A stretch of 64,000 nucleotides of DNA from Cyanidioschyzon merolae (Eukaryota), in assembly GCA_000091205.1 (NCBI GenBank), contig AP006501.2, one strand, 5' to 3'. Under the pieces are notes generated by a model that saw nothing but the letters and a program-made list of their open reading frames with translations, made no database searches and had not been told where the DNA came from. The position numbers and the translations under genes were made by a program. How positions within the stretch are numbered: the stretch's first letter is position 1; each line of letters opens with the position of its first letter. This document shows, in pieces, positions 858 to 61,500 of this stretch.

Positions 858-3800
858 ATGACGCACGCTCAACAAACCACTGGTACCGTTCTATCCGAGT
901 CGGAAACCCGACACCTGACAGAAACGCTTCTTCAGATTCTGGAGCCGCATCTTCAATCCTTCAACAGTGCAATAACGCAGGGCCTGCAGCAGGTGCTCCA
1001 CGATATCGAGCCACTTATCCTTGAAGGAACCGTTCAGCAAGCAGCTGACCACGTGTCCAAGGAACGACTTGAGGTCTGGTTTGAAGACCTCCGCCTTCAA
1101 AAGCCGCGTCTGCCCAGGGCTCGCGCGTTGCAGTCTACAGGCAACCTCAGAGCGCGCGGCTTTGCAGATGAACTCGAACTGGGTCTAGATCCTTCAGCGA
1201 TACTCCCGCACCAGTGTCGCGCCCTGCAGTCGTCGTATACAGGCTCGCTAAGCGTCGTTCTCTGCTGGCGAGCGACGCGCATCTCGCACGGCTGTTACCG
1301 GAAAGACAGCACGCTATGTAATACAGCGCTCTGGACAAACGGCTCCTACGCGGAAGATGTTTATCGCAGCGAACGGCATCTGGGCGAGGTTCCCATACTA
1401 GTGGGATCCAAGTTGTGCCACTTAGACGGACTGAGTCCAAACGAGCGCGTTGCACTTCACGAAGAGGAGTACGATTACGGTGGCTACTTCATCGTGAATG
1501 GTGTCGAAAAGCTGCTGCGAATGGTGATTATGCCGCGAGCCAACCATGTGATGGTCATAGCGCGTGATGCAAACGTCCGACGTGGAGAGCACTTCACTCG
1601 CTTCAGTGCAATGATTCGCTGTCGACGCGCTGACCGAGTTCGAGTTGTTACCAATCATCTCCACTACCTTCAAACTGGTCTTCTTAGGCTTCGATTTTCC
1701 GTCAAACGCCAAGAATACTTGCTACCGTTAGGGCTTGTGCTGAAAGCCCTTTACGATCTGGCTGATCGGGAGCTATTTTTGCTGCTCACAATGCCAAGTG
1801 GATGCTGCGGAACTAACGCAGATGAAAACCTCCGCTATATCCGCGAGCGAGCGCTCATGACGGTTCGTGAGCTGCATGTACTAACTGGTGGTGAGGGTAC
1901 CCAGCACGCAGCGCTGTCTTACTTGGGTGCTCGTTTCCGTTGCCTGTTTCCAGAGTACCTGTCTTCTGACGATTCCGATGAGCGCTGTGGCGCGTTTATT
2001 TTGCGTCGATATGTGCTCATTCACCTCGACGATCCACTTCAAAAACTAGAGCTCCTCGCCTATATGTCGCGGAAGCTTTTGCATTATATGACTGGCTGTC
2101 TCGCAGAGGACGATCCAGATTCGCTAGCGAACCAGGAGCTCCTCTTGCCCGGACAGCTTTGGCTGCTTTTCCTCCAGGAGAAGCTCCAAGACGCCCTGTT
2201 CGCGCTACGGGATGAAATTTCCCGGCAGTTGACTCAGCGAGCCAATCAGGGAAGCTTACTAGACCCAGATTTTGTCCGCAAATGTGTAAGCAAACCTCGC
2301 AGTGGTATCAGAGTAGGCGAAAGGATGTTGCACCTGCTATCCACGGGAACAGCGTCCCTGCGGGATGGTGCAGAGTTGCTACAGACGTCGGGTTACAGCA
2401 TCATAGCGGATCGGATCAACTTCCAACGCTTCCTTTCCCACTTCTACAGCGTCCATCGAGGGCAGTACTTTTTGAATCTGCGCACGTCGGAGTCTCGCAA
2501 ACTCAAGCCGGAGACTTGGGGCTTCATCTGTCCGGTGCACACACCCGATGGAGCACCCTGTGGAATTCTCAATCATCTCACGCGAATGTGCCGCGTCGTC
2601 GCGGATCAACAACAGGTACTGCAGGAGCAGAAGCGAATCGAATGGATCTTGGAGACGCTGCCACTGGAGCATCCTCTCGCTCACAACGATGCACTGCTTA
2701 TGCCACCGGCGAATGCAAGACCAGTACTGGTGGATGGTCGGATTCGAGGCTATGTGCATGGAGATGTACCGCTGGGGAAGCTTTTGCGTCAGCAAAAACT
2801 CGAGCATTTCCCCCAAACAGAAATTGTGGATGTGGAGATCCCGCGTCTCTTCCCGAGCGTCATGGTGTTCTCGACACCGTCACGGCTCATGCGCTCAGTG
2901 TGGAATATGCCGCAAGCTGGCATAGAATGGATAGGCACCATGGAGCAACTTTTCATGCCCGTTGACCTGTGCAAGTCGCAGTCGATGTCTCGTGCTGGAA
3001 ACGCAGCCATTCATCGTGAGCTGAGCGCAACGAACATTTTCAGTCTACTGGCCTCGTTTATTCCCTTCAGCAACATGAATCAATCACCGCGAAATATCTA
3101 CCAGTGCCAGATGGGCAAACAAGCCATGGGCGTTCCCTTTCACGATTGGGATCGGAGGTTCGACACCAAGTCCTACCGATTACTGACGCCCCAGCAACCT
3201 TTGGTGCAGAATCGCTCTGAGGCCCAAGCCGGTTGGTCCAAGGTCTTCGGATCGAGCTTCAATGCAGTAGTCGCTGTGATCTCATACACTGGTTACGATA
3301 TGGAGGACGGTATGGTGATCAACCGAGCGAGTCTGGATAGGGGTCTCGCCCACGGAGCGATCTACGGCTGCGAATTCGTGGATCTGGATCAGCTCAATGT
3401 CGCAAAGGATGCCCGGTTCAGCCGACTGCCAGCTGTAGGCGAGCGCATGACACCCGGCTCGGTGCTCTATAGTATTCAGGGCCGGAGACCTCATCTTTAT
3501 CGGAATAGTGAGACGAGTTATGTCGACGCTGTGCTCCTCGCCGAGAATCAACGGCGCGTTGCTATCCGGACCCGGACGCCTCGGCGACCCGTCATCGGGG
3601 ACAAGTTTGCCTCTCGACATGGCCAGAAAGGGGTGCTGTCTGCAATCTGGCCCGCTGAGGATATGCCGTACACGAGCGACGGGATCGTTCCGGATATTCT
3701 CTTCAATCCGAATGGCTTTCCGTCGCGGATGACCATCGGTATGATTGTGGAGTCTATCGCAGGGAAAGCTGCAGCCGTTCACGGCGCTGTGCCAATTGAC

Positions 3801-19540: not shown

Positions 19541-20399
19541 AACTCAGGCCAGCAGCCCTGTCGAGAGCCAAACGTCAGGTCTTCCCAAGCACAGCCTGTC
19601 CCAGAGGTAGCGTCCTCCAAAGGAGAACAACAGTTGGATTCGAGCTCCGTCCGAGACCGATTAACTCTCTAGATTGTACATACCGCTGCGAACGGCGCTA
19701 TCATGGATTCCGTCACGCGCGTCTGGGCCGCGATGGAAGCGAATTTCGCGAGGGCGCGATTTTTCTTTAATCATTGACGAAATGTTTACCTGGGCCAGCG
19801 TTCTCCGATTATGCGCATTTTTCTTTTCTTACTTTTTTTGTGTTATTTTTCAGTGCGCGGTGAAGTATCCACCAAATGCCCTACCTCCAAGTTACATCAC
19901 CTATACTTATTCTCGGATATTCTGGTCGTTTCATACGTCCTATCGTGTGCCGAGCCTGCGGCATGCGACCGCAATGGCGCCAATAGCGCCGGTGCAGTCG
20001 CTGCACGGAGACAGAACGGCGTTGGCGAACTGCGAGGGCGCGATGGGGACTTCCTGTACTTCACCTCAACTGTATTCCATCCTATGTGAATGTTACCATA
20101 TGCTTTTTCGCAGTTTTATAGCATATGCGTTCGAATCGCGTACATTTGAAGGGACAAAAAAACCAAGGGACGCTATGGACATGGAATTCGGGGATCCTGG
20201 AGGCCCGGTGTCGCTGGCTGCCGGAGAAAAGGGAAAATAGTAACAAGCCCAGGGAACGGTAGAAGACGAAGAAGCAGAAGCAGAAGGCCAGACGTCAGAA
20301 GCGACTCGAAAAATGACGCAACTACGAGAATTTCGTGGAAGCCTTTCTTCGACGCAATATCAAGGATCCCTAAAAGCAAAAGAAGCAAGAGGCCAACAG

Positions 20400-22220
20400 A
20401 AACAGTGTCGCGTCCCACTTCATGAGTGTTTGTAACGCTTCCCTAGAAAAGATGCATTTTGTGAGGGACATGTACCACGACGTAGCGGATACCAAAACAG
20501 TCAAAGTTCCGGAAGAATTTTTCACGGTTACCTCCATCTGGCACCTGATGGCTGCCACAGGGGAAATGTCGGGGAGGAACGATCCAGTGCACGCCTTCTA
20601 CGAAAACTATCCCTTCTGCAGCATCAACGGTACTCGATGCAGGGCTGACTCGGGTATTTACACTTACGAGGCGATAGAGTATCTCACGAACCTGGGGAAC
20701 CAAACAATCGTAAACCACGAACGGTTCATCAAAGGCTGCATCTTTGCGCTCTACTCGGCCTGTCTCATAGGGTGGGTGACCATCATCGATAGCTCGACTA
20801 GAGATCGCCAGTATGAATAAGAGATCGAATTCTTCGACGAGGAGACATCACACAGGAGCACTACTGAAGGTTCTGTGATCCGTGCGGCTATTAAAGAGCA
20901 ACGTGGGGCCTCGAGGCTAGCGGATCAGCAGAAAACGTATCAGATATGAAAAAACATGAAAAGGAATTTTATCCCCTATCCTGCGCTATGTCGTATTTTT
21001 GAACAGAGAACTCGAGCGCAGGGCCAAAACGGAGCAGGGTGTGGAAGAAAATGAGGAGTCGATGGGGCGGCGGACTGCGCCTTTGGGGAAGCGCTTCAAA
21101 ATCGTACTGTTATGCAACATCAAGTCATATTTTGTGAAAATCGACCCCAGAGTCCTTTACGGCACACTGAAGGAGGTAAGTTCGGATTTCGATGTAAGCA
21201 ACTTGGAATTTACGGGCGAAAACCTGGAGACTCATTGGAAGCACATCTTCGATTTCAAACGTCTCAAAATGAGCAAGAAAAAGGTATTCAAGGAGATGAT
21301 CGAAAGCGATGGAGTATCCATACGCGTTGACTACAGGTGCTTGAAGGTGGATCGTCCTGTTTTGTCCTCGATATCGCGGGTGACGAAGCGTGACGAAATG
21401 AATGATGCGGACCCTACGACGTAGGAGGTGCAGGCGAAGGACCTCGTCGCCGGCGTGGACCGTGGGAACACGAATATCATGACCATTGCTGTTTCCATGC
21501 ATGGGAAAAATGCAAGGGCTCCCATCGCACAGGTGCAGCAAATGGAGAGCATAACCTCTGGACTTGTGACGACGCGGTTAACGACTTTTGCAATGAAACC
21601 CGCAGCGTATGGCACATTTACCTGAGCGGTTATACTCAGACCAGTGGATTTTGGAGTACATGTGCCAGCAACCCATTTTGTTATTGTTTCTTTTGCTCCC
21701 AGGCATTCAAAGAAAGCAATGGATCCCTTAGATTCGATAATTGTGGAGAAGAGACCTCAAACTGTCACTTTTAGCCTGCGAGCAATGATCTGACTCGTTC
21801 AATTCGGTCATTCTGCCATCAGCAGGTGGATGGATCACCTTTATCGTCGTCTTTGACTTGAACTTCGTGCATGAAAGGCAAAACTTAACAAACTCCCTCA
21901 CATAGACAGAATCGGCATCGATCCGTTCCACTCCATACACTCTCGCAGAAATTCTGCCGAAGAACCCAAATCGTGTGGAGTCCCCAGTCCTTTGATGCGA
22001 GGGATGATGAAGAGACACGAATGGACGAAGGAAAAAGCATGCTTCTTTGGGAGTTAATTGCGTGTTTGACGGGCCATTACCGACTCTGTACCGATGTAGA
22101 AGGCTTTTTCCAGAAGCGATATGTTTCGGCCTCTTACGATGAGACCTCTTTCGGAAGAAATGCGAAAGATGTTGATGAATACTTCACGAAGAAGGACAAC
22201 AAATGTTGTTCGTAATGAAG
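20400..22220 (+). mobile_element. Degenerate TnpB/Fanzor-like element, copy 1. N-terminal region, RuvC-I and zinc-finger segments are present; the RuvC-III tail appears absent
   Basis: Homologous at nt and aa level to 46066-47940. GKRFKIVLLCNIKSYFV matches GKRFKVVPLCNIKSYFV; LVAGVDRGNTNIMTIAVS matches VVGADPGDTNIIAIAVS (RuvC-I GxDxG). 21973-22215 (ACLTGHYRLC..KRYVSASYDE) matches copy 2's AGCWASKKWC..RRFATIPIDE. Confidence 0.65.
20999..21625 (+). pseudogene. Fanzor/TnpB-like nuclease ORF fragments of copy 1, interrupted by an in-frame TAG at ~21422
   Basis: ORFs 20999-21424 and 21428-21625 are in the same frame, separated by a stop; the RuvC-I motif lies in the second piece. Confidence 0.6.
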
Positions 22221-24552
22221 AGACAAGCTAGAATAATGACGACATCAGCCCATGCGCAGATTCCATCGAGTGGTAGTACGCAGGTCGCCAAACCTAGGGG
22301 ATCCCTCAGCAACCCATGCATCCTCGGGGCGCTATGTGGCACCTCCATTGTATATTTTTCTTGATTTGAGATGAAGTTGCTTTCCATAACTCTCTAGCGA
22401 TCAAGGAATAAGCAGCTGAGATAAGCGTTGAGCTGCCCTACATATCGGTCCATTCTTGCATGCAAAATCCGGTCGAGTGCGTCCTCTCGATTGCTATACG
22501 ATATTTTCTCGGCCTCGAATTCATAGACGAGACGTTTGCGTCCGTAACAAAGCAGTTCTTCGATAGATCCTTCTTCAACAAGTAATTCTCTACCTTAACC
22601 AGCTTTCAAATGCCCTGTGGCTCTTCCGATCTTTCGGACAAGGGTGTGCAAAAGCGCGCTCTGGCAGTGGAAGTGCCCGCGGCGAAGAAGATGCAAGAAG
22701 GTCACGGAGCATAGTAGAGACACATCTGCATTGTGGTTAGCGTCCGTCCCGCCGTCCTTCTAGTGTATCCAAGTCCCCGGGAGAATAAGATTACAAATAT
22801 AGCTACCGGATCTATGCTACTCTGCTAAGAAAAAGAAAAGGCGAGGAAGCAGAAGAACAAGCGACCAGACAGAGAAAGATACTGTCTGAAAGAAGAGGAG
22901 GAATAGGAAGGGATAACAGTAGGACACGGATTCAATCTTAGAATACCTTTAAGGTCTCTCTGCTAAAAATTGCCAAGAGGATATTTTTCCAATCGTTGAG
23001 ATTAAGGACGCCGTTAGGGACCGTATTGCACCTTGCTCGAGGACAATTCACCAGGCCTGCATAACATTGACACATCTCGTCAATGAATTGCTCGGCGTTC
23101 CAGGTGCGGAACTCCAAGGTACCCGCATTCCAATGGAATTTTTCGATCAAATATTCGTGCCAGAACTGAGACCCGGGACAGAAGCTGCGATACGACCTGA
23201 TATATCCAGAGCTCTAAATCATCATGAACCGGGCGGAATAGACACCAGGGGGCATACCAATATCGGGAATTTCAGTAGCTAGACCTCCATCTCGACGCTC
23301 TGCTTACGGTATTGATCTGAGAGGGATGATTTGTGCGCTTCTCTCACGGTATATGATGGTTCGGATGGCGCATGAGGACGATCCTTGGCTGGGATACCTG
23401 AGACGGTGCTGGTTTCGCCGCAAGTCTTGTTTGTATGGAGGTAAAACGTGCATTTGCGAAATTCGGGAATGGAAGAAATAGAAAATATCTGATAAGTTGC
23501 GTTGTTCGGGGGTTGCCTATGTCGCTTAACTTGCCGAAGAGCGCAAGGGCTCCACCCCTGCTCCTTCACAAAAAGCGCACAATGAGTGAAGGAATCGCTT
23601 CTGTTCGATTCCAATCGATGCTTTTGAGAGAACACTGACGCATCATGAGCTCGAGTGCACGCTGGAAAAGGTACAGAAACAAAGGGGGAAACAGAGCCGA
23701 ATGCAAGTGATGATACACAGTAAGTTGATCGAACTTCAAACGGCAAGGGAATCGAAGTAAAGAGGCTTGCTATGGATAATTTCACTAGGATCCATGAGCG
23801 TAAGCATGTCCTGCACCAGGACTTGAATGCTTCGAGAATCATCCGGAAATGTCTCGTACTTTCGGAACTTCCTGCCGCTGCTGGCGAGCGACGATTCAAG
23901 GGAATCATTTAGCGCTCAGTCTGGGCATTCTGATGAAACGTTGAGAAGCACGGATGAAAAACGTGAGTCGCCCGGAGAGATTGGAAGTGATTCCCGCCTG
24001 GAGCGAGTCACTGGTATGGCACAGTTCAGCAAACCACCAAGACCTAAACTCGATATCCATTCACGGAAAACGGTTTTCCATGAGACTAGCTAAACGATAT
24101 CTCGAGTTCGACTATTTGGTTTTAAATAGTATATTTTAACTTGTCCTGGCAAGCATGATCGTTTCTTCGAACGCCCTGCTGGGCATGAAGGTAGCCTCTA
24201 CATACAGCGGAGCTATGAGTCGGCGAGCTTCTCTCAGCCTCGTGAAAAGCCATTCAACACAAATACGTTTCAAATCAATGGCATGCCTCAGATTATCTTC
24301 ATCATACACAGGTCATCCACTACATACAGCATGAGTAGGCATTGATACTCCGCCAATCCTCCGTTTGGAGCGTCTGCCTGGAACGCCAAGCGTATCTTTC
24401 TCCGGGTGGCACAGTGTGCGGCCCAGCACGAGGACCAGATCCGACCGAAATGCACAGCGAACAGAATGTTTCGCAGCTGTTCCGCGATGTGTCGCAAGCT
24501 CTAGCAACGGGAGAGCTGTCGCAGATCGCACTTTTGACTAACTATTACTTCA

Positions 24553-34309: not shown

Positions 34310-35054
34310 CTAGACACTTGGACGAACGCTTCGCGGTCCTCGGAGCTCACAACAGAAGCTCACATGTCTGGAGCGCACACTGCCGTCTCAAAATGCAGCC
34401 GCCGTTGTGGCTGCACTGCACAAGCTTCACACCGGGCATTTGCGGCGACTAGAAAACGTAGAGGCTTTGAGGCAGCAAAGGAAAGAACAGAATATGACCG
34501 CTAACTAGCTATTCGCCAACACATTCTTCCCGCCTCTATCGTAAGGTTTTCAAGTGGGAAAAGGTTTTCGTAGTTCAGAAAGCTTACCTTCTATGCGCAC
34601 CGTCCGGCTAGTGCTTCATGCTACCAGTGGCGGGTGCAGTGGCGCGACCTGATCAGCTCGTTTGCAAAGCAATTTCACCTGGGACTAGCAGTGGGTAGGC
34701 AGCGTATCTCCGTCACCGTGGTCTCGGTGGTCTCCTAGCATAACGCCTCGCGCTGCAGAAGGCAGCACGTCTTTCTACCCAGCTTGCTGGCTCCCAGAGT
34801 GACGATGAATCCCTATTCCGTGTCGGGTGAACGACGCCTCGAGCCGACACCCTCAGCGGCATGGCAGAGCCGTTCTGTCTTCGTGCTGCATTCGCGCTAG
34901 TGGTTTAGGCGCTCCGGAGGGTGCGCACGGTAGGATCGGCGCACGAGAGAATGTACGGAAAATTCCAAAGGCGGGCGTTTTCTCGTAGCTATTTAAAAAA
35001 GAGGCGAGAAAAGGAAGCACTTGAAGTGAGCTGTGAAGTTGCATCAAGACTACT

Positions 35055-46065: not shown

Positions 46066-47940
46066 TTGCTCTCCGTTCTTCACGTGCAGTATTCTCAAAT
46101 CACGCGTTCTTCATGTTTTAGTCTTTCTTCTTCAAGGTACTTCGGGGGTTCTGCAATGTGCCCCGATGGATTGGTGAGGAACAACATGAGATGTCGACCT
46201 TTGACGACTTGTTCACAAGGTCATGCCGAAAGTCAGCTGAACCTTCCACGCCAAGTAATAAATTCTGTACGAAAGACATGTCCTTCTCTATTTGCAAATT
46301 ACGAAGAAACCGTATTTTACAACAGCACAATGGTTCCCAGAGAATATGCTCCCAGCGGCTTTCGTCTCTTGTGCTTTAATGGAAACGGGTCTTGGACCCG
46401 GGCCTCTCTCGAAAAGGCATTTGGGCCATCGTCACTGCCATCACCAACGATCGGCAGCATGAACAGGCGAAAGAATTTTTCGACAAGAAGACATCACGCA
46501 GGGGAAAGAATGAAGCTTATGTGATCGGTTCGGCTATTCAAGAGTACCGTGCGGTCTTGGGGCTAGCGAATCTCGCAGAAAAGTCATCAGATATGAAAAA
46601 AAGGTGATGAAATGCGCTGTCCCCTCATCCTGCGCTATTTCTTGTTCTTTGACCGAGAACTCGAAGACAAGGCCGGAAAGGAGCTGGGTGTAGGAAAAAA
46701 AGAAGAGTCGGAGAGACAGAAGGCTGCCCTAATGGGGAAGCGCTTCAAGGTCGTTCCGTTATGCAACATCAAGTCATACTTTGTGACAATCAACTCCAGA
46801 GTCTATTTCGGCATCATGAGGGATATCTATGAGGAGTTCGGCGTAAACAGGGAGGAGTTCAGCGGCGAAAATCGGGACACGTACCGGAAGAGTATCTTCT
46901 ATTTAAAAAGTGTCAAAACGAGCAAGCAAAAGAAATTCACATGGATGGTCGAAAGCGATGAAGTATCCATGTGTGTACACTTTCGGCGCTTGAAGGCGAA
47001 TCGTCCTGTTCCGTCCTCGGCTTCGCCCCTGAGGAAGCATGCAGAAAAGAAAGAGGCGGATCCTGCTACGCAGAAAGTGCAGGATAACGACTTTGTCGTT
47101 GGCGCGGACCCAGGGGACACGAATATAATAGCCATCGCAGTATCGAAGCGTATGGTAGATGTGACTGACGGCAACTTACGTCATAAAGACATGCGTCTCT
47201 TAAAGTTCTCGAGAACGAGATATCACCGAGAATCGGGAATAATGAGTGCGAGGGAAAAAATTTAGGAAGAGAATTCAGGAGTGAAAGAGCGCCTGGAAGC
47301 TATGAGCGAGGTGACTAGCCGAAAAGCGGACTTTCGAGCTTTTCTGAAATTCATGGAAGTTCGCGTTGCTCTTTGGGAGGCGCTGTGGAAAGAGTATACA
47401 AAGCCACGATGGGCTCGTTTGTGAATGAGCTTGTACTGTGTGAAGCAGCGGGCATTCGCCAACTTTTTCAATGAGTTGAGTGCCTTGAAAGAGGACGAGA
47501 GTCAAAGGCACGTAGTAGCATTCGGAGCAGGGTGCTGGGCATCGAAAAAATGGTGTACACCAGCTCCAACGACGAGAACGTACAAGGAGCGTGCACGGCG
47601 TTTTGCCACAATACCAATAGATGAGTTCCAATCGTCCAGTATTCACCATGAGTTGGGATGTACACTTCAGACGGTCGAGATGGATTAGTGTCAGCGGCGC
47701 GGTGACGATATAAAACAGTACGGAGCGCTGACGGAAGAGCAAATGGAAAGGACGGCGAAAGTTCGAGGATTGCTTACGTTAGTGAGTACAACCACCGGGA
47801 GGAAACGTGTGAAGTTTGTGAACAGGGAATTTAACGCCGCCATCAATATAAGGAGATGTGCGGTGATGGAAATAAGACCTCCAGAGTTGACAAGAGTGAA
47901 TTTTTGGGAGAACCTCTCAAATTATACGAGAAGAAATTGA
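46066..47940 (+). mobile_element. TnpB/Fanzor-like RuvC nuclease gene, copy 2. Full-length architecture but broken by in-frame stops and one frameshift
   Basis: Same-frame ORFs 46066-46524, 46612-47265, 47425-47688 and 47743-47940. RuvC-I VVGADPGDTNIIAIAV, Cys/His cluster GCWASKKWC..HHELGC, and a C-terminal VNREFNAAINIRR (RuvC-III signature with D to E). Confidence 0.7.
46612..47265 (+). pseudogene. Largest intact segment of Fanzor/TnpB-like copy 2 (N-terminal/WED-like region plus RuvC-I)
   Basis: 217-aa ORF ending at a stop. The sequence continues in another frame (EENSGVKERLEAMSEVTSRKADFRAFLKFMEVRVALWEALWKEYTKPRWARL), which indicates a frameshift. Confidence 0.6.
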
Positions 47941-48058
47941 AGCCAGTAGTAAGTGGCCAGTCTAAAAAGGCTGGGAAGCGTCTGCACATCGGCTGGAGAC
48001 GTCTAGCGTAGAGCGCGAGGCGCGCAACTACTGCACCGCTGGTGGCAACGTCTGACTT

Positions 48059-48799
48059 TTGAGGCGTTCGTTATTGCCAGCGTTGGCTGTGATGGAGGGC
48101 CCGGAGGCAAACCCTTCGTGTTCAGAGGTCTTGACACCCTCAAGCGCACTGCCTAGAGCTGAAGCGACACGCACGGCGCTCGGGTGGTTCTGGTTCCGGG
48201 TGCGGACGTGTTTTGGACAAGGTGACGCTGCGACTCAAAAATTAGAGCAACGATCTTTCGTTCAGCGACTGTTACCTCTGTGCACACTAGTGCTCACTTT
48301 GTGCTTAGCGTTCACGCTTTGGAGGGCTTTGGTCCTGTGGACCTACTCCGAGTCCCCAGTCGTTGTGGTGCTCAGTGGCAGCATGGAGCCAGGTATTCAC
48401 CGCGGGGATATCCTATTTCTTTACAACCGCACCGCAGCTGAAAGGCCTTTACGTGTCGGTGATATGGTTGTTTACAGTTTGCGTGACCGCAGTCTGCCGA
48501 TAATCCATCGCATTATTGAAGTTCATAGACGAGCTTCCGAGAGCATAGGCGATGGCACAAGGGCATCAAACTCTAGTATCCTGGAATATTTCCTTACAAA
48601 AGGGGATAACAACTTCGGTGACGATCGAGGTCTCTACCCTGCTGACAAGAAATGGCTGCTACGCAGTGACGTCATTGGACGGGTTATCTTTACTATCCCG
48701 AAAGTTGGCATGCTGACGATCCTGATGAATACACACAAATGGTTAAAATACGCCCTGATAGGACTGCTGTCACTCACCCTGCTCTTCATATCAGAGTGA
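48059..48799 (+). CDS. SEC11: Signal peptidase complex catalytic subunit SEC11; the true start is probably an internal Met
   Basis: SESPVVVVLSGSMEPGIHRGDILFL (Ser-His catalytic region) and a C-terminal GDNN..DDRGLY motif. Confidence 0.88.
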   Translation: MRRSLLPALAVMEGPEANPSCSEVLTPSSALPRAEATRTALGWFWFRVRTCFGQGDAATQKLEQRSFVQRLLPLCTLVLTLCLAFTLWRALVLWTYSESPVVVVLSGSMEPGIHRGDILFLYNRTAAERPLRVGDMVVYSLRDRSLPIIHRIIEVHRRASESIGDGTRASNSSILEYFLTKGDNNFGDDRGLYPADKKWLLRSDVIGRVIFTIPKVGMLTILMNTHKWLKYALIGLLSLTLLFISE

Positions 48800-50866: not shown

Positions 50867-52681
50867 TCAAGCTGAGGGTTCAGCGCACAATTCGGAACGA
50901 TTTGCCGAGGCCAAAACTGGCAGCGTTGCATACTGGCTATCAGCCATGCCGATAGCTTCCGCAATACCCCGGAAGCTCGGTTCTTCACCGTTGAGAACCG
51001 TAGCAAGAATTTCTCGCGGTTCTTTGGAAGCGCCGAAACGGAAAAACCCATTCCGTAAAAGCTCCCCTGCAGCCGCCATAGATAACTTGGAATCACGAAA
51101 CAGCCGATTCCATACTTCTGCTGCGAGTATTCTTGCCAAAAGGTAAGAATAGTAGCATCCTCCATAACCAATGATATGCGGCATATATGGGATTCCATCC
51201 CGATACAAGACTTGTTCCAAGCGCCCGTATTCCCGAACGACCTCAGCGATAATTCTTTTGATCTTCGATCGCGCCTCATTACCCCATCCAAAATGATCAT
51301 GGGAGTGGAGTGCCAGGTCCAGCGCCGCGAAAGGCGTCTGCAGAGCTATCTCCGCGACAACGGCCTCCTGTCTCGCCTCTTCAAGTTCTGCCAAAAATTG
51401 ACGTGGCCCATTTGGGGCGAAACGGCGCATCCAAGCAGCATCCCACGCAAAGTTTTCCATGAGATGGCTCGGGATTTCCACAAAATCCATTGGACCGCGA
51501 GTTCCAGAGAGGTGCTGGAAGCGCGTTCTCGACATAATCGTATGTAAAACATGTCCAAGTTCATGCAGGAGAGTCTCCAACTGATAATGTTGCATCCCCG
51601 CTTTTCTTATTATAGGCGGAAAATCACAGACAATGGCAGCGCTCGGCAGCTGACTGGAGCCATCACGTAGTCGACGACTCCCTCGTAACGCGTAGTGCGC
51701 TGCTCCCGGCATCTTGCCATCGCGAGCAAACAAATCAAAAAACACCTCGCCGACGAAGTTCCCGTTCCGCGCGTCCACCAACATAGCGTGCTCTACGCTT
51801 GGATGCCAGATGACTCCCCTGACTTGGTTTTGACGGAGCCGATAAATGCGAATTCCAAACAACTCACAGAGTAAGCCGCTCAACACTTCTAGAACCGAAT
51901 CAACACCAAGATATGGCTGGAGTCGGCGAGCCAGCGAGCTGCATCGTGAGCGTTGAAGGGAAAGGCTATCATGCTGGCGCTTCCTTCGCACCTCATTCAA
52001 CATCGAAGAAACTGAGTTGAGAAACGATACTACGCCATGGGGGTGGCGAAGCAACTTGTCGAGAGCTACGAAGTGAGCATATGATGGGTACGATAGCACC
52101 TGTGCGAGCTCTGATCGCTTATTTAGCAAAGCAGTGAGCGAGTTCCAGGCGATGTTCACATTTGCGGACCCGAAACGCTTCCCGGGGCTTTTCTCCGCAT
52201 CTCGGAATACCGCTGTGACGCGCATGCTCCATTCGAGGATTTCATTCTGTACTGCGGCGACGTGTTTACGCTTTGATGGCGATAAACTTGCTCCTCCGCG
52301 CAAAGCAAAGTCGCGTTGCAACGAGCGGACCAGTGCTTGCTCCTCGCAGGTTACTGCGTCCTGCTTGCGGAGCAGTGCTCCACACAGATTCTCGTCACAG
52401 TTCAGCTCTTGCATGTATTGAGAGAGTTCCCTAAACACACTCTCGCTCGCCTCCACGTGTTCAGGCTCCGCTGATACGTTCCGAGCCAGTTCGGAAGCAT
52501 CGAGTACCTGGCAGAGAGTGTCTGAGAGCTCGTCGAAATCCTGGAGCACGCTGCCTTCGCGGTTAGAGAGGATCTTGTATACCAGATCATTGCACGCTTT
52601 GAGTGTCTGGTGCTTAATTGTTTGCCAGTCTTGAGGCACGTGTAGACCTCTCAAGCCAAACAAGCCTCTGGAGCATAGCAT
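50867..52681 (-). CDS. M3-family zinc metallopeptidase (oligopeptidase or mitochondrial-intermediate-peptidase-like)
   Basis: HELGHVLHTIMSRT..FVEIPSHLMENFAWD (HExxH plus a downstream Glu). Confidence 0.85.
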   Translation of the reverse strand: MLCSRGLFGLRGLHVPQDWQTIKHQTLKACNDLVYKILSNREGSVLQDFDELSDTLCQVLDASELARNVSAEPEHVEASESVFRELSQYMQELNCDENLCGALLRKQDAVTCEEQALVRSLQRDFALRGGASLSPSKRKHVAAVQNEILEWSMRVTAVFRDAEKSPGKRFGSANVNIAWNSLTALLNKRSELAQVLSYPSYAHFVALDKLLRHPHGVVSFLNSVSSMLNEVRRKRQHDSLSLQRSRCSSLARRLQPYLGVDSVLEVLSGLLCELFGIRIYRLRQNQVRGVIWHPSVEHAMLVDARNGNFVGEVFFDLFARDGKMPGAAHYALRGSRRLRDGSSQLPSAAIVCDFPPIIRKAGMQHYQLETLLHELGHVLHTIMSRTRFQHLSGTRGPMDFVEIPSHLMENFAWDAAWMRRFAPNGPRQFLAELEEARQEAVVAEIALQTPFAALDLALHSHDHFGWGNEARSKIKRIIAEVVREYGRLEQVLYRDGIPYMPHIIGYGGCYYSYLLARILAAEVWNRLFRDSKLSMAAAGELLRNGFFRFGASKEPREILATVLNGEEPSFRGIAEAIGMADSQYATLPVLASANRSELCAEPSA

Positions 52682-52960
52682 AGGCGTGAGTGCTGCTACC
52701 GCGCTAACTAGGTACGCTACTTTGGGTTAAGCGTACTCGCCGCGTCACAGGTGCACGTCCGAGAACCTCAAACGGCAGTCACAGGAGACATATTCAAAGA
52801 GACTGGTAAACTAGTTTCATTTTGCCCTTATTTCGGCCCAGTAGGTGCTTTCTAAATACGAAACTCCCCGGACGCAAGCACAGCAAAAATAAAACCCACA
52901 AGCGAAAGAATCTAATAGATGCTAATCTGAGGAGCGAAAATCGTATCAAAACCATAGTGG

Positions 52961-53314
52961 TCAATAAATGTATTCACGCGCAGACGATTCCCAGCCTTTT
53001 TCGACCGGCAGACTGCTGTCGGCCGGTCGAAAAATGTACACTTCGGGTCTGCGAGGCTTCCACACGAAGTTAGATCGCCTCAGCTCTGCGGCCCTCGTCT
53101 CCAGCACCGCAAATCGTCTGATATTAATAGCAGTGCTGAAGTCTCGGTTCACAAACTCCATGCGTTTGTTGCCGCTGGTTGAACTCACTAGTCTAAGGAT
53201 TCCTCGAACTCGAGCGCTCAGTGCCATTTGGTGCTCTGTCAACTCTGCGTGATTTTCTATCGCCGAGCCGCTCCACCGGCTCCTCTCCATCTCGTTCTTC
53301 TGAAGTATACGCAC
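52961..53314 (-). pseudogene. TnpB/Fanzor-like C-terminal fragment, copy 3, carrying the RuvC-III motif
   Basis: LSARVRGILRLVSSTSGNKRMEFVNRDFSTAINIRRFAV aligns with copy 2's TAKVRGLLTLVSTTTGRKRVKFVNREFNAAINIRRCAV. A TGA stop lies immediately upstream, so it is a fragment. Confidence 0.65.
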
Positions 53315-54538
53315 AGTTCATCCAAAGGGTTTTTTTCCTGAAACGAACGTACTTCCTCCCGTCCTTAAGTCAGGAGTTTCCCGGAGGATCGAAAGACTTG
53401 GAAAGTAAAGACAAAATGTGTCCCGATGTGTTACCGTGTGCTGAAAGCTTCAGCGATTCGCCCACTAGAACGATCACTACGTTTCACGATAGAAAACACT
53501 CCTTCGATGAGCTTTAACGACCGAGCGCATGCAGAGATAGAAAGCAGCTCTTCCCCGATTGCATTGGTAAAAGCTCAAACGCAAGAAGAATGGTGAAATA
53601 CCACGTTTTCCAATAGAATGACGTCGCTGGACGTCAGGAGAAAGTCTTCAATGATTCGCCAAAGTGGTCGGTGCTGTTGTATGAGCCTTTTCGATGAGCG
53701 AAACTGAGGCCGCAAAATGAATCTACTGCAGTTAGAACAGATAATGATGTCCTCGTTCTCATCGAGCTCGATCGTACATACAATGCGATTCCTCTCCGCA
53801 AATACTCATACACGCTTCGAGCGTATCGTTTGAAGTAAGTCATATTGACTGAAGAAACAAACCGACGTCCCCGTGCTTCATACCGATCGCGACGTGTCAG
53901 GACTTGTGTTCGAGCGATTCGGCGGAAGATGGCCATGCATGCATTTGGACTTTTTTTGCGACTGGATCTCAGTATTTTGATGACCACATATACAGTCTGG
54001 TGTGAAACAGGAACACCAGTAGTAAATCGTATCGACGCCTTTTGCTTTCCCTAGAGTGATCAACGGATCGTCTTCTAGCGTTGAGAGCAATCATGCTTTA
54101 AGAATATCGATTTTGGCACGAAATGCTTTCAATCTTTTCTTTCAGTGTTCCACCACCATCTGTGTTCTCCGCTACGAATGAGCTGAAGGTAAATGCAGTC
54201 CTCGTTGCAATTTTCAGTAAATGATATATCTTGTAAGCAATTCGTCTGTGATCTATGCGGTACATTGATCTGTAATATCCATCTCCATCTAGACAACACA
54301 GCGGAGCCGAAACAGAATTGAGTTGAAAGCCGCTCGCGTACGGCACTGAGCGCCGCGCACGCAATTTCGGGATTCCTTGCGCGTTGCAGACCGCACTCTG
54401 CAGTTGAACGCGTTGAGGCCAGTGGACGCATTCATAGTGTCGAGTGCGTGGACGTATTGTTTGCATAAAAAGCGAGCTCTCTATGAGGTGTTTACGTAAG
54501 TCACTGCTAGATTTGTAGCTCCTGGACTCCTCTATTCG

Positions 54539-55408
54539 ATGGAGAATCTTAGTTTTAGGGAAATTCGAGAGAAGAACGCTTCCAGAGGTGTTCCTTCCCG
54601 TACAGTTCGGTGCACAACGAGGTGGACCGAGGCGCCTCAGGTGAGACGGCAGAGTTTTTCAACGCCTGAAGCCGTCTTTGCTTCAGAAAAGACACGCTTT
54701 TGTGGTGAGCGTCAACTACAGCGCCGCCGCAGGACGCAGCTGTGTGCGTGGGGACTCGTCGAGGGCTCCGCTGTGATTGGAATTCTCGGAATCCTTGTAA
54801 CGCTGAATATTGTTTCCCGAATTTCGGACTCTGCCCGAGGGACGCGCCTCTGGTCTCGGGAGCAAAGAGGCCTCTTTGTTCGCCGCAGGCCACCACCACG
54901 TGAACGCTGCACAAAGTGTGGTGGGTTTGGCATCGTTCGGTGCTCTTTGTGCCGTGGTTCAGGTTTTGTGCTCTACGAGAAGAAGCTCCAGCATAGTGAC
55001 CCGTGCCCGCTATGCACTGCTCGGCGATACATACGTTGCGGCATGTGTCATGGCAGTGGACGGCGGAAACTAGTCAGAAGGCATGACCCTGCGCTGAGCA
55101 GCATTCGCCTCAGCGATCCGACTTCACTGTACAATGCGTTTAGGGCGTGGAGAGAAGAGTTTGTGCGCCGCGGATCGCTTTCAGTAGGCTTTCTGAATCA
55201 CGAGGGCCTCTTGAACCGTGCGTTCCGAGTAGCTTCGGCATTCGCTGACTCGCTCAAAAGCGGTATTGGTCGCAGCTGGTGCACAGTCCAAGAACGTGTT
55301 CGTGCGGGAATTGAGCAACATTTAGAAGCCCGCAAAAAAGCTCGAATGAGTCGAATTGCACGAGCACGCAGTTTCCTTGAAGAGCGTTTACAAAAAGAGT
55401 CACAATGA
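54539..55408 (+). CDS. DnaJ-like CxxCxxG zinc-finger protein, reminiscent of plastid BSD2/LQY1-type proteins
   Basis: CTKCGGFGIVRCSLCRGSGFV...CPLCTARRYIRCGMCHGSG gives four CxxC pairs. Confidence 0.55.
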   Translation: MENLSFREIREKNASRGVPSRTVRCTTRWTEAPQVRRQSFSTPEAVFASEKTRFCGERQLQRRRRTQLCAWGLVEGSAVIGILGILVTLNIVSRISDSARGTRLWSREQRGLFVRRRPPPRERCTKCGGFGIVRCSLCRGSGFVLYEKKLQHSDPCPLCTARRYIRCGMCHGSGRRKLVRRHDPALSSIRLSDPTSLYNAFRAWREEFVRRGSLSVGFLNHEGLLNRAFRVASAFADSLKSGIGRSWCTVQERVRAGIEQHLEARKKARMSRIARARSFLEERLQKESQ

Positions 55409-58571: not shown

Positions 58572-61500
58572 GCGCCGGCGCCTGCAGTGCTTGGCTTTCT
58601 CGAGTAGCTGCTATGTGCTCCGGGCAGAGGTGGCGAATAGAGCAGGAACCAAGCTCGCCAAAAAACGGAAGCGAGCTCCTGAGTTATTTCCTGGTTTTTT
58701 ACGAACACTATGGAGGTATTCCAATTCTTTGTTCAGGTTTCGGATCGTGGCCAGCACTGACGGCGGCAGCAGTAAGCCCGTGCGCTCAGCATAGCAATAA
58801 GCGGGCTCAAGGTCGTCATCACGACTAGATGCTCCCTAATCAGAATAATGACTTGCTGAGCTGATAGCCTTCACTGCATTCACCCTCAATATTGGATGCT
58901 GACTACCTCATGCACATCGTCGCCTCTTTGATCGATGGGAAAGCGGCGCTATCATACTGCTGTCCCATGGATTTCCGACGAGAAACTCTCGAAAGCGGTC
59001 CGGTTTCGTGAAAAGATAGAATGGTGCATCTTTTTGACGGAAATATGATGCTTCCAACACTTGCAAGGCCAGACGTTGCGACATTGTTTCAGACGTAATC
59101 CACACGGGCCGAGCAGCATCTGCAGAAAGCTGGATTCGCGCAACCGACCAGAGAGACATCTTCTGTACTTCTGTCCCTTCTCGGCTGAATCTGGGAACCC
59201 ACTCACACACTATATAAAGTCGCTTAATTGGGATCAGGCTTTCTTAGATTCTCTTGATTGTTTTAATAAAACGACTTGCAGCTCGCACTAATTGTGGAGT
59301 CGTTTGCGTGGCTCTCCGTTGCAGAGCGGAGTTACGCGACAGCCCAAAACATTCATGATGTTCTACATACAGCTGTGAGTTATAGAACGCGTCTCCAAAT
59401 AAACCTTGTTCTTTTGCTCGTTTCTCTCACAGATATCGAAAACCAGGAATGCATCGTTGGACTGAAGAATGGACGCGGAATTTTTTTTGCTTTAAGTGCT
59501 GGCTGGCAGTTGAAAGCCTCAGATTTTCGAGTACTTCGTGCTTCGCTCAGCTAGTGGATGAGCGAACCTTCTTGTTGTCAATCTCTTGAACATTGTCTAC
59601 TCTTGAAAAAGATCAAATCAAAACCTATCCAGATGACTGGCTCCTCAGCAATCCATTCCACCCCAGACTCTCGCTCAAAAAAATAAATGCGAGAGGAGCC
59701 ACAGGATCCGAGTTTTCCCGTTCTTTGACGTGAACCATGATAAAGCGACACGCTTGGAGAACGAAAATGGGACCCTTCTATTCGAGACAGGCGCGCGTGA
59801 AACAACACACCATCGACTTCGTCCTGAAACGCGAATGCGTATTTCGAGAGGCAAGGGCGGTGATCTCGCTCAACGAGACTCCCTTCGGAAGCGATGATGG
59901 TCCTTTGCGTGGGCGCCCAGAGGGCGGCAAATTACTGTTCATGAAGGAAACGCTGGCGGGAATGATCGCAGCATCAGCGCTAGCGGGGATTCAGTCGAAT
60001 GTTCGCCGCCAAATCGCCAAACGGAAAGAATCGTCCAACACCGCATCATAGGTTGAACCACTCTTCGTGGCTTCTTTTCCGCGAACTCATCCATCCTGCT
60101 CTCGCACAACATAGCTTTCCACCGCCCATATGGTGTCGTCTAACACGCTGCTTGCATTCATGTTGGGCTGCTCCTCGTGCCGGTCTCTACTTCGTGGTAT
60201 GATCGAGTCGAACGCGCATTCTATGGCATCAAACGCTCTGTTGACGCTCACGAATCTCTAGACATGTCACTCGAACCGTCGCACCGTTCTTAAACAAGTC
60301 GTGCTCTCCCTTCATCTGCCATGAACTGCTGTGTTGCTTTAGTGCTCGTGCGCGGTATGGAGGTGAAATACGCTCCACGGTCCGTGAATATTCTCGCAAC
60401 CGAGCGGATCACCAGAGGATTCCTGAGGAGGAGGAGTAGATACATATACACCTACGCAGCAGAAGGCGGACTCGGTCCCACCGTCCATCAAGCGCGTCTG
60501 AGCTCCTAGGGGACAAACGTCCATGATATACAGCGCCGAAATCCAAGCCATCTCGCCGAGCAGATGTGAAGAAGGGAAACGCCACTGGGCAGAGAAAAGG
60601 AGGGTTCCCTTGAATAGAGGACTACGAGGGAGAGGACGGAAAATCTGCCGGAGCTGAAAGACCAGTCTGAAAGCGTTGTCAGGTCTTTTTTACCAAAACA
60701 TATTAACCTGGAGCATTCCCAGAAATTGAAGAGAATGACTTCAGTGGGAAGAGCGCAGCTTCACACACAAGGAAGGCTCACCTGATATTTCTCGCATTGA
60801 CGCACGTCGTCAAGCAGCATATCGTGGGAGTTCCGGACGCAGTGCTGCCAGCTGTCCACATTCTTATCGAAAGTTTTCATCATATCTTCCTGAGAAAATG
60901 CAGATGATGCTCTTGTCAGAAGGTTCACTGCGCTCCGATCGTTGGATCCGAGTTTTGGACACCCGCTATCCAGCACGCCTACAAGCATCCCCGCGCCAGT
61001 CAACGATCGGAACATCTAAAGCACAGGTACCAGAAGCCATCGAAGCAATCTCATGAAACGAAACCATTCGTGGGTTAATGTCGAGCGCTTCATGAGGCGG
61101 ACACTGTTGGTATTGTTGCAGTTGTACGCTTATTCCACTGGTCCGGAATTGTAGGAACTGATGCAAAGGGTTCCCGAGGTGTCGATAGATGAGAATGACG
61201 AGCTCGTGACGAAAGAGCTCGTGACGGTCGCGAGTTCTGAAGGGATATCGCAGTGAGAGAGAGAGAGTCGCAACGATGTTCCAAGCTAGCATCAAATGGC
61301 TAAGGTTTGTGGCACTTGTGCCCATCGCACTTGCTGGTGTCTCTCAGATGCTGCATGCGCATGCCCATGAAAGCTTTTGGTGCAGAAGCAGCCTCAAGAA
61401 GATCCGGAAAGTATACAATACGACCGATAGAGCATCAGGCGTCTGCAAAAGTGGTATATCAACAAGTATCAACTATGCTCGCGAACACTGGAGCTTCTTG

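Follow-up and report, generated by a model that had tools for sequence, protein, structure and literature searches.

The question at this locus is whether the open reading frame (ORF) of 117 aa at 52961..53314 (-), in the 64-kb stretch of Cyanidioschyzon merolae DNA analysed here as a whole (the window), belongs to a Fanzor nuclease gene, and what is left of that gene. The initial annotation read it as the third TnpB/Fanzor-like fragment in the window, lying on the opposite strand from the others and retaining the canonical RuvC-III Asp. We find this fragment, hereafter copy 3, to be an internal piece of the Fanzor1 transposon CMe-1A that spans 52976..53321 (-), and we put the probability that it is a non-functional, doubly truncated relic of that element at about 0.93. 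The host is confirmed by five window ORFs that are identical to NCBI proteins of C. merolae strain 10D, namely BAM82753 (farnesyltransferase beta), BAM82755 (VCP-like AAA ATPase), BAM82758 (ClpB), BAM82760 (SufE/BolA) and BAM82764 (CYME_CMS135C).

Identity of the fragment and of its parent family

A single Fanzor1 family, CMe-1A, has been described in C. merolae (Bao & Jurka 2013, Mob DNA 4:12; PMC3627910), with a consensus of 3169 bp that encodes the single-exon, 734-aa protein CMe-1. About 150 copies were counted, each ~80% identical to the consensus; the element has no TIRs, its TSD is not given, and it was left “unclassified” (PMC3627910). Its 5′ 635 bp are held in common with the non-autonomous element TE-N2_CMe, of which there are ~70 copies (PMC3627910). 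We took the CMe-1A consensus DNA and the CMe-1 protein from the supplement of PMC3627910 and mapped both onto the window.

Copy 3 has significant similarity to the consensus at both the nucleotide and the protein level. The published DNA consensus aligns to it at 74% identity over 273 nt (blastn, E 1e-41), and CMe-1 aa 617-707 align at 59% over 91 aa (tblastn, E 5e-24). The initial annotation had compared it with copy 2, another fragment in the window, and that homology is borne out: the conceptual protein of copy 2 matches at 54% identity over 80 aa (tblastn, E 1e-19), the two DNA sequences are 70% identical over 213 nt (blastn), and a family HMM, a profile built from 11 database homologues, matches 53314-53048 in the six-frame translation with E 3e-22. 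The fragment's apparent age also fits the ~80% identity published for CMe-1A copies of this same genome and family.

The catalytic residues of CMe-1 could be located as D431 (RuvC-I), E603 (RuvC-II) and D672 (RuvC-III). When 1.84 billion representative proteins were searched exhaustively with a profile, 2652 relatives of the CMe-1 family came back at E ≤ 1e-3, 45 diverse members of which make up a clade alignment, A4. The aligned proteins all agree at the DPG Asp, the DEF Glu and the R/N/A/N positions of RD.NAA.NI, and almost all of them have the RuvC-III Asp. Against the PDB, the A4 profile retrieves the solved Fanzor1 proteins of Parasitella parasitica (9cf0, E 7.9e-20), Spizellomyces punctatus (8gkh, E 1.8e-15) and Guillardia theta (9cer, E 2.3e-8), the alignments running through RuvC-I DPG, RuvC-II DE(F/Y)(R/K)T(S/T) (here DEFRT) and RuvC-III RD..A.N. 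Several clade relatives also give sub-threshold matches (E 0.0017-0.18), at the expected place, to PF07282, the Cas12f1-like TNB domain formerly called OrfB_Zn_ribbon. Because the clade profile matches solved Fanzor1 proteins and the PF07282 hits fall where they should, the parent family is, judged by its sequence and as published, a bona fide Fanzor1. An AlphaFold2 model computed from a 34-row alignment was poor (pLDDT 45.9, pTM 0.33).

The zinc-finger region of this clade is a side observation in its own right. The Fanzor/TnpB motif of Bao & Jurka, D-X(125,275)-[TS]-[TS]-X-X-[C4 Zn finger]-X(5,50)-RD, lists a C4 zinc finger as strictly conserved (PMC3627910), and the clade of 2652 relatives has lost most of it. 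Where the solved Fanzor1 proteins align CPRC/CPKC plus CxxxxC, and in contrast to the RuvC-I/II/III motifs, which do align, the clade consensus DEFRTT...VRGLLWCxST...KFVNRD has only one of the four cysteines (RGLLWCxST), and CMe-1 itself reads RGLLALVSTT (within CMe-1 aa 606-672).

Could the resemblance of copy 3 to TnpB/Fanzor be a chance motif match in an unrelated ORF? By itself the copy-3 ORF retrieves nothing relevant in Pfam or NCBIfam, and nor do its close full-length homologues; the narrow 11-sequence profile matches no solved structure in the PDB. A precomputed label, PF26935 (DUF8286), is uninformative and is not mentioned in the literature searched, and the database homologues of the repeat carry no informative annotation. 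Such a coincidence is nonetheless refuted, and its probability is practically nil, given the family HMM match (E 3e-22), the blastn match to a published Fanzor1 element (E 1e-41) and the agreement of the 45-sequence clade profile with three solved Fanzor1 proteins (E 8e-20 to 2e-8).

Extent, coding content and decay of copy 3

In a local alignment, copy 3 pairs with nt 2737-3088 of the 3169-nt consensus (~74% identity), both flanking parts of the element having been cut away. Within its 346 bp, two blocks stand out, 53310-53042 (-), which aligns to consensus nt 2749-3020 (74%), and 53009-52976 (-), which aligns to nt 3055-3088 (85%). The 5′ 86% of the element is gone, and what remains differs from the consensus by ~26% substitutions and several indels. 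Homology begins at codon ~611 of CMe-1, 8 codons past the RuvC-II Glu, E603 (the E603 codon occupies consensus 2712-2714, and copy 3 starts at consensus 2737). Neither terminus of the element (consensus nt 1 and 3169) is present, and among the missing parts are its last 81 nt, the site of two terminal hairpins. This 3′ tail was not detected near copy 3 (alignment score 8, against a shuffle mean of 8.4).

A decayed N-terminal part, whose possible persistence upstream the initial annotation had raised, was likewise not found. In 53322-54538, CMe-1 homology was absent from every frame, as judged by hmmsearch --max on six frames and by tblastn at word size 2, and DNA alignment gave a score of 14 against a shuffle mean of 12, a value equalled in 18 of 200 shuffles. 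Nor did hmmsearch --max reveal other CMe-1 pieces near copy 3. Copy 3 is thus an internal piece cut at either end, as opposed to a gene whose N-terminal part has decayed.

The open frame was described correctly as to its length: 117 aa are open from a GTG start, and a TGA lies at 53318..53320 (-), read as 53320-53318, one codon (ACT) 5′ of that GTG. As to its content the description needs qualifying, for the in-frame homology covers only about 83-95 codons. The first ~95 codons are an in-frame remnant of CMe-1 residues ~614-707, in which we read NRDFSTAINIRR and also ...KRMEFVNRDFSTAINIRRFAVLE...; past ...EVY the ORF runs in a shifted frame (a net -2 nt of indels), so that its last ~25 codons are out of the family frame and do not encode Fanzor sequence. 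The upstream TGA falls within the last 7 nt of homology and is read in the frame that results from a 1-nt deletion 7 nt inside the 5′ edge. The indels that follow this edge are, in order, -3 (common to copy 2), +1, -1, -5, +2 and +1. For a eukaryotic host, the first usable ATG is codon 9, which gives 109 aa instead of 117. The ORF has been called by metagenome gene callers only; NCBI's annotation of strain 10D does not list it. An 88-aa variant of it was considered as an allele with a stop and rejected; it reflects the alternative start choice of a gene caller.

As to active-site residues, the earlier reading of the RuvC-III position in the two copies is correct. Copy 3 has the RD motif (NRDxNAAxNI), with the Asp equivalent to D672 encoded by the GAC at 53141..53143 (-) (codon 53143-53141), whereas copy 2 reads ...VKFVNREFNAAINIRR... 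(NREFNAAINI) and has Glu there. This Asp is the sole catalytic residue kept. The RuvC-I Asp (D431, in GADPG), which is invariant in the clade and present in CMe-1, is absent from copy 3, as are the RuvC-II Glu and the [TS][TS] that follows it (VDEFRTS, E603). With neither of the other two catalytic residues in place, the persistence of this Asp is functionally meaningless, and as only the RuvC-III part is retained, copy 3 cannot be a nuclease. The best-conserved motif of the family, FVNRDF..AINIRR, is kept. The cysteines that would mark a C4 zinc finger (PF07282) at the family position are absent and there is no Pfam match, the parent being already degenerate here; the two cysteines still present in the family are both replaced in copy 3 (GC..EKC -> VR..ERS).

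Copy 3 further differs from CMe-1A in carrying a copy-specific perfect palindrome at 52997..53034, with 13-bp arms around a 12-nt loop, TTTTTCGACCGGC ... GCCGGTCGAAAAA. The right arm is ancestral CMe-1A sequence, and the left arm is its exact complement, having replaced ~13 nt of consensus (AAAAAGTTGGAAGC). The palindrome folds at -25.7 kcal/mol (z -4.1), whereas the corresponding stretch of the consensus reaches -8.4 (z -0.5). From its sequence, the clustered change in the left arm looks like the outcome of a template-switch (quasi-palindrome) mutation.

Genomic setting and other CMe-1 pieces in the window

The spacer that holds copy 3 is 1.86 kb long and separates two divergent genes, one for an M3 peptidase (50867-52681, -) and one for a BSD2-like zinc-finger protein (54539-55408, +); the M3 peptidase gene is ~295 bp downstream of copy 3 and has the same orientation. 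No Rfam match was obtained in 52600-54600. At the orthologous locus of Cyanidiococcus yangmingshanensis (L006) the gene order is kept, and the spacer there has no detectable similarity to that of the window. CMe-1 sequence was not detected in this syntenic spacer, which is too diverged to separate late insertion in C. merolae from full decay in its relative.

The gene order is different in a more distant relative (L007, an ENA ERZ1300892 contig whose BSD2-like protein is 45% identical), in which RSH, CTP-transferase, prenyltransferase beta, M3 peptidase and BSD2-like genes all lie within ~7 kb. In the corresponding 16-55 kb of the window, the prenyltransferase and peptidase genes are 25 kb apart and the peptidase gene is inverted. 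CMe-1A copies 1 and 3 are located in spacers that adjoin these synteny differences.

Four other pieces of the family were mapped in the window. Copy 1, a frame-shifted 5′ and middle part of CMe-1A, occupies 19880-20024 and 20101-21512 (+) and aligns to consensus 84-228 and 837-2250 at 77% identity (about 52-63% at the protein level). It is followed by ~1.8 kb of unrelated DNA and then by a diverged CMe-1 piece at 23311..23793 (+), which covers aa 499-660 at 33% identity. The latter may be the tail of copy 1 or a separate, older insertion; because it is so much more diverged, its sequence suggests that 19880-23793 holds two insertions of different age. At 34482..34960 (-), between an ADH-like gene and an SRP40-like gene, there is a TE-N2-like 5′ module (consensus nt 133-636, 74% identity).

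Copy 2 is a 5′-truncated CMe-1A at 46396..48062 (+), matching consensus 1486-3163 at 83.7% identity and with an intact 3′ end. From ~46396 it keeps one frame for ~1.3 kb, interrupted by several in-frame TGA/TAG stops, with a frameshift only near the C-terminus; its decay has thus been dominated by substitutions. The stretch 46075-46395 (+), which had been taken as the N-terminal part of a conceptual copy-2 ORF (46075-47937), is not CMe-1A sequence, the 5′ limit of copy 2 being consensus 1486. A similarity to the CMe-1 N-terminal region at 60999-61121 (+) (HMM E 0.045, tblastn E 0.17) is probably noise and was set aside.

The proximity of three copies had been taken as a sign of local enrichment or an island. 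The genome measures 16.5 Mb. A Poisson calculation with ~150 copies (PMC3627910) in a genome of that size gives an expectation of 0.58 CMe-1A copies per 64 kb and a probability of about 0.021 for three or more, which amounts to ~5 such windows genome-wide by chance. The genes around the copies are ordinary housekeeping genes. The supposed island is at most a mild, unremarkable excess.

Proposed origin of copy 3, alternative readings and the wider family

Over 83 in-frame codons, copy 3 has a dN/dS of 0.45 relative to the consensus (22 synonymous and 41 nonsynonymous changes), a value that, taken alone, would allow for some constraint in the past. Most likely, a share of the changes accumulated under selection in a source lineage that was still active, before neutral decay set in, as is suggested by a 3-nt deletion relative to the consensus that copies 2 and 3 have in common; the synonymous counts are also inflated by transition bias. 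That the frame has stayed open is unremarkable, since a run of 95 codons that had diverged neutrally by 26% would escape every stop with a probability of about 0.08. Population variation was read from nine conspecific environmental contigs (99.6-99.9% identity). SNP sites number 3 in the 346 bp of copy 3 and 17 in the remainder of the spacer (1511 bp), an equal density, and the three in the copy-3 ORF (53228, 53283 and 53305) are all nonsynonymous. Polymorphism in copy 3 looks neutral.

We propose that a single CMe-1A insertion left this non-functional relic of an old Fanzor1-carrying transposon family of C. merolae. An intact CMe-1A encodes a 734-aa Fanzor1, predicted by homology to the solved Fanzor1 proteins to be an RNA-guided RuvC endonuclease with D431, E603 and D672 as its catalytic residues; going by what is established for Fanzor/TnpB, its guide RNA would be specified by the 3′ end of the element. 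Copy 3 has kept nothing upstream of codon ~611, and hence neither D431 nor E603, and the last 81 nt with the element end are missing too; these truncations probably arose through deletions or through a truncated insertion, with nothing selected. The 117-aa ORF would then be a residual open frame and not a gene, and its RuvC-III Asp would have persisted through incomplete decay, not function. Copy 3 has a single catalytic residue out of three and lacks zinc-binding residues as well as any element terminus; it is best regarded as inert, and is presumably neither transcribed nor translated to any effect.

Co-option of the relic in any form, whether as a small RuvC-III/TNB-derived protein or as a cis-regulatory or RNA element in which the 13-bp-stem hairpin acts on the M3 peptidase gene, strikes us as quite improbable, its sole hints being the sub-neutral dN/dS and the open frame. 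As a protein, the ORF (109 or 117 aa) would be an exapted, non-catalytic nucleic-acid-binding remnant of the Fanzor1 C-terminus, for which retention of the FVNRDF..AINIRR motif might be cited alongside the open frame and the dN/dS of 0.45. Such a protein, however, would lack two of three catalytic residues and both remaining cysteines and would end in ~25 aa of frame-shifted junk; its three SNPs, all nonsynonymous, come at the density of the flanking spacer, the openness of its frame has the chance probability given above, and it is unannotated in the reference genome. CMe-1 is also not detectable at the syntenic Cyanidiococcus locus, a spacer too diverged to inform on the matter. We consider this exaptation very unlikely.

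A use as nucleic acid we regard as equally unlikely. Here the relic would either be transcribed into a solo omega-RNA-like molecule on which intact CMe-1 Fanzors could draw in trans, or form part of the promoter or 5′ region that precedes the M3 peptidase gene. In characterised Fanzor and TnpB systems, gene and element reportedly carry the guide RNA at their 3′ end (Saito et al. 2023), the part from which copy 3 derives; the fragment also sits in a divergent promoter region and can form the strong hairpin described above (-25.7 kcal/mol, z -4.1). Yet that hairpin is copy-specific and not part of the family consensus, and the missing 81 nt include both terminal hairpins as well as the boundary from which a guide would begin; SNP density is neutral and Rfam gives no match. 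An inert relic of CMe-1A accordingly remains our reading of copy 3.

Relics of this kind are common in the family. A metagenome scan anchored on the C-terminus confirmed at least 374 loci, 80 of which (L008-L087, on JGI metagenome contigs) were mapped to the consensus. Their 5′ starts cluster at nt 1-6 (full length), at ~640-690, at ~2093 and at 2506-2665, the last group consisting of solo 3′ pieces (e.g. L037, L062, L065 and L075), from which we conclude that short relics of the 3′ part are frequent in CMe-1A. Some 20 C-terminally anchored copies with room upstream start at consensus ~640-690, where the 635-bp TE-N2-like 5′ module ends, which suggests a subfamily with another 5′ part, or with none.

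The element ends also show regularities. Among the CMe-1A copies examined, the 5′ flank of full-length copies is T-rich (e.g. TTTTGTTTC immediately before CGATGAC) and the 3′ flank starts with TT(T/G). Several distinct loci share ~10-14 further nt beyond the published consensus end, so the published consensus may be slightly short there. Two variants exist of the terminal ~45 nt, ...CGTTTTTCTTTTGAAAGGCG and ...CGTCGTTCGACTTTCGAACGGCG, either of which folds into two adjacent hairpins; the variants pair in registers shifted by 3 nt, and we do not claim column-wise covariation. The Chlamydomonas elements CRe-1, CRe-2 and CRe-3 are Helitron2-associated, 5′-truncated Fanzor1 (PMC3627910), and CMe-1A likewise yields many 5′-truncated copies that keep the 3′ part. 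By analogy, its T-rich 5′ flanks, TT 3′ flanks, 3′ hairpins and 5′ truncation recall those Chlamydomonas Helitron2 Fanzor1 elements. Copy 3, a 346-bp internal piece of a 3169-bp element, differs from the typical 5′-truncated copies in having lost its 3′ end too.

Copy 3 adds a further decayed member to a family catalogued in 2013, in a reference genome that has been sequenced in full. Its practical value lies in annotation, in that the 117-aa ORF called in metagenomes is to be masked as a CMe-1A relic, and listed neither as a gene nor as a nuclease. What was noted in passing bears on the family and not on copy 3 itself; T-rich insertion flanks, paired terminal hairpins, frequent 5′ truncation and, throughout a large Fanzor1 clade, loss of zinc-finger cysteines could help to classify CMe-1A and to find its guide RNA.
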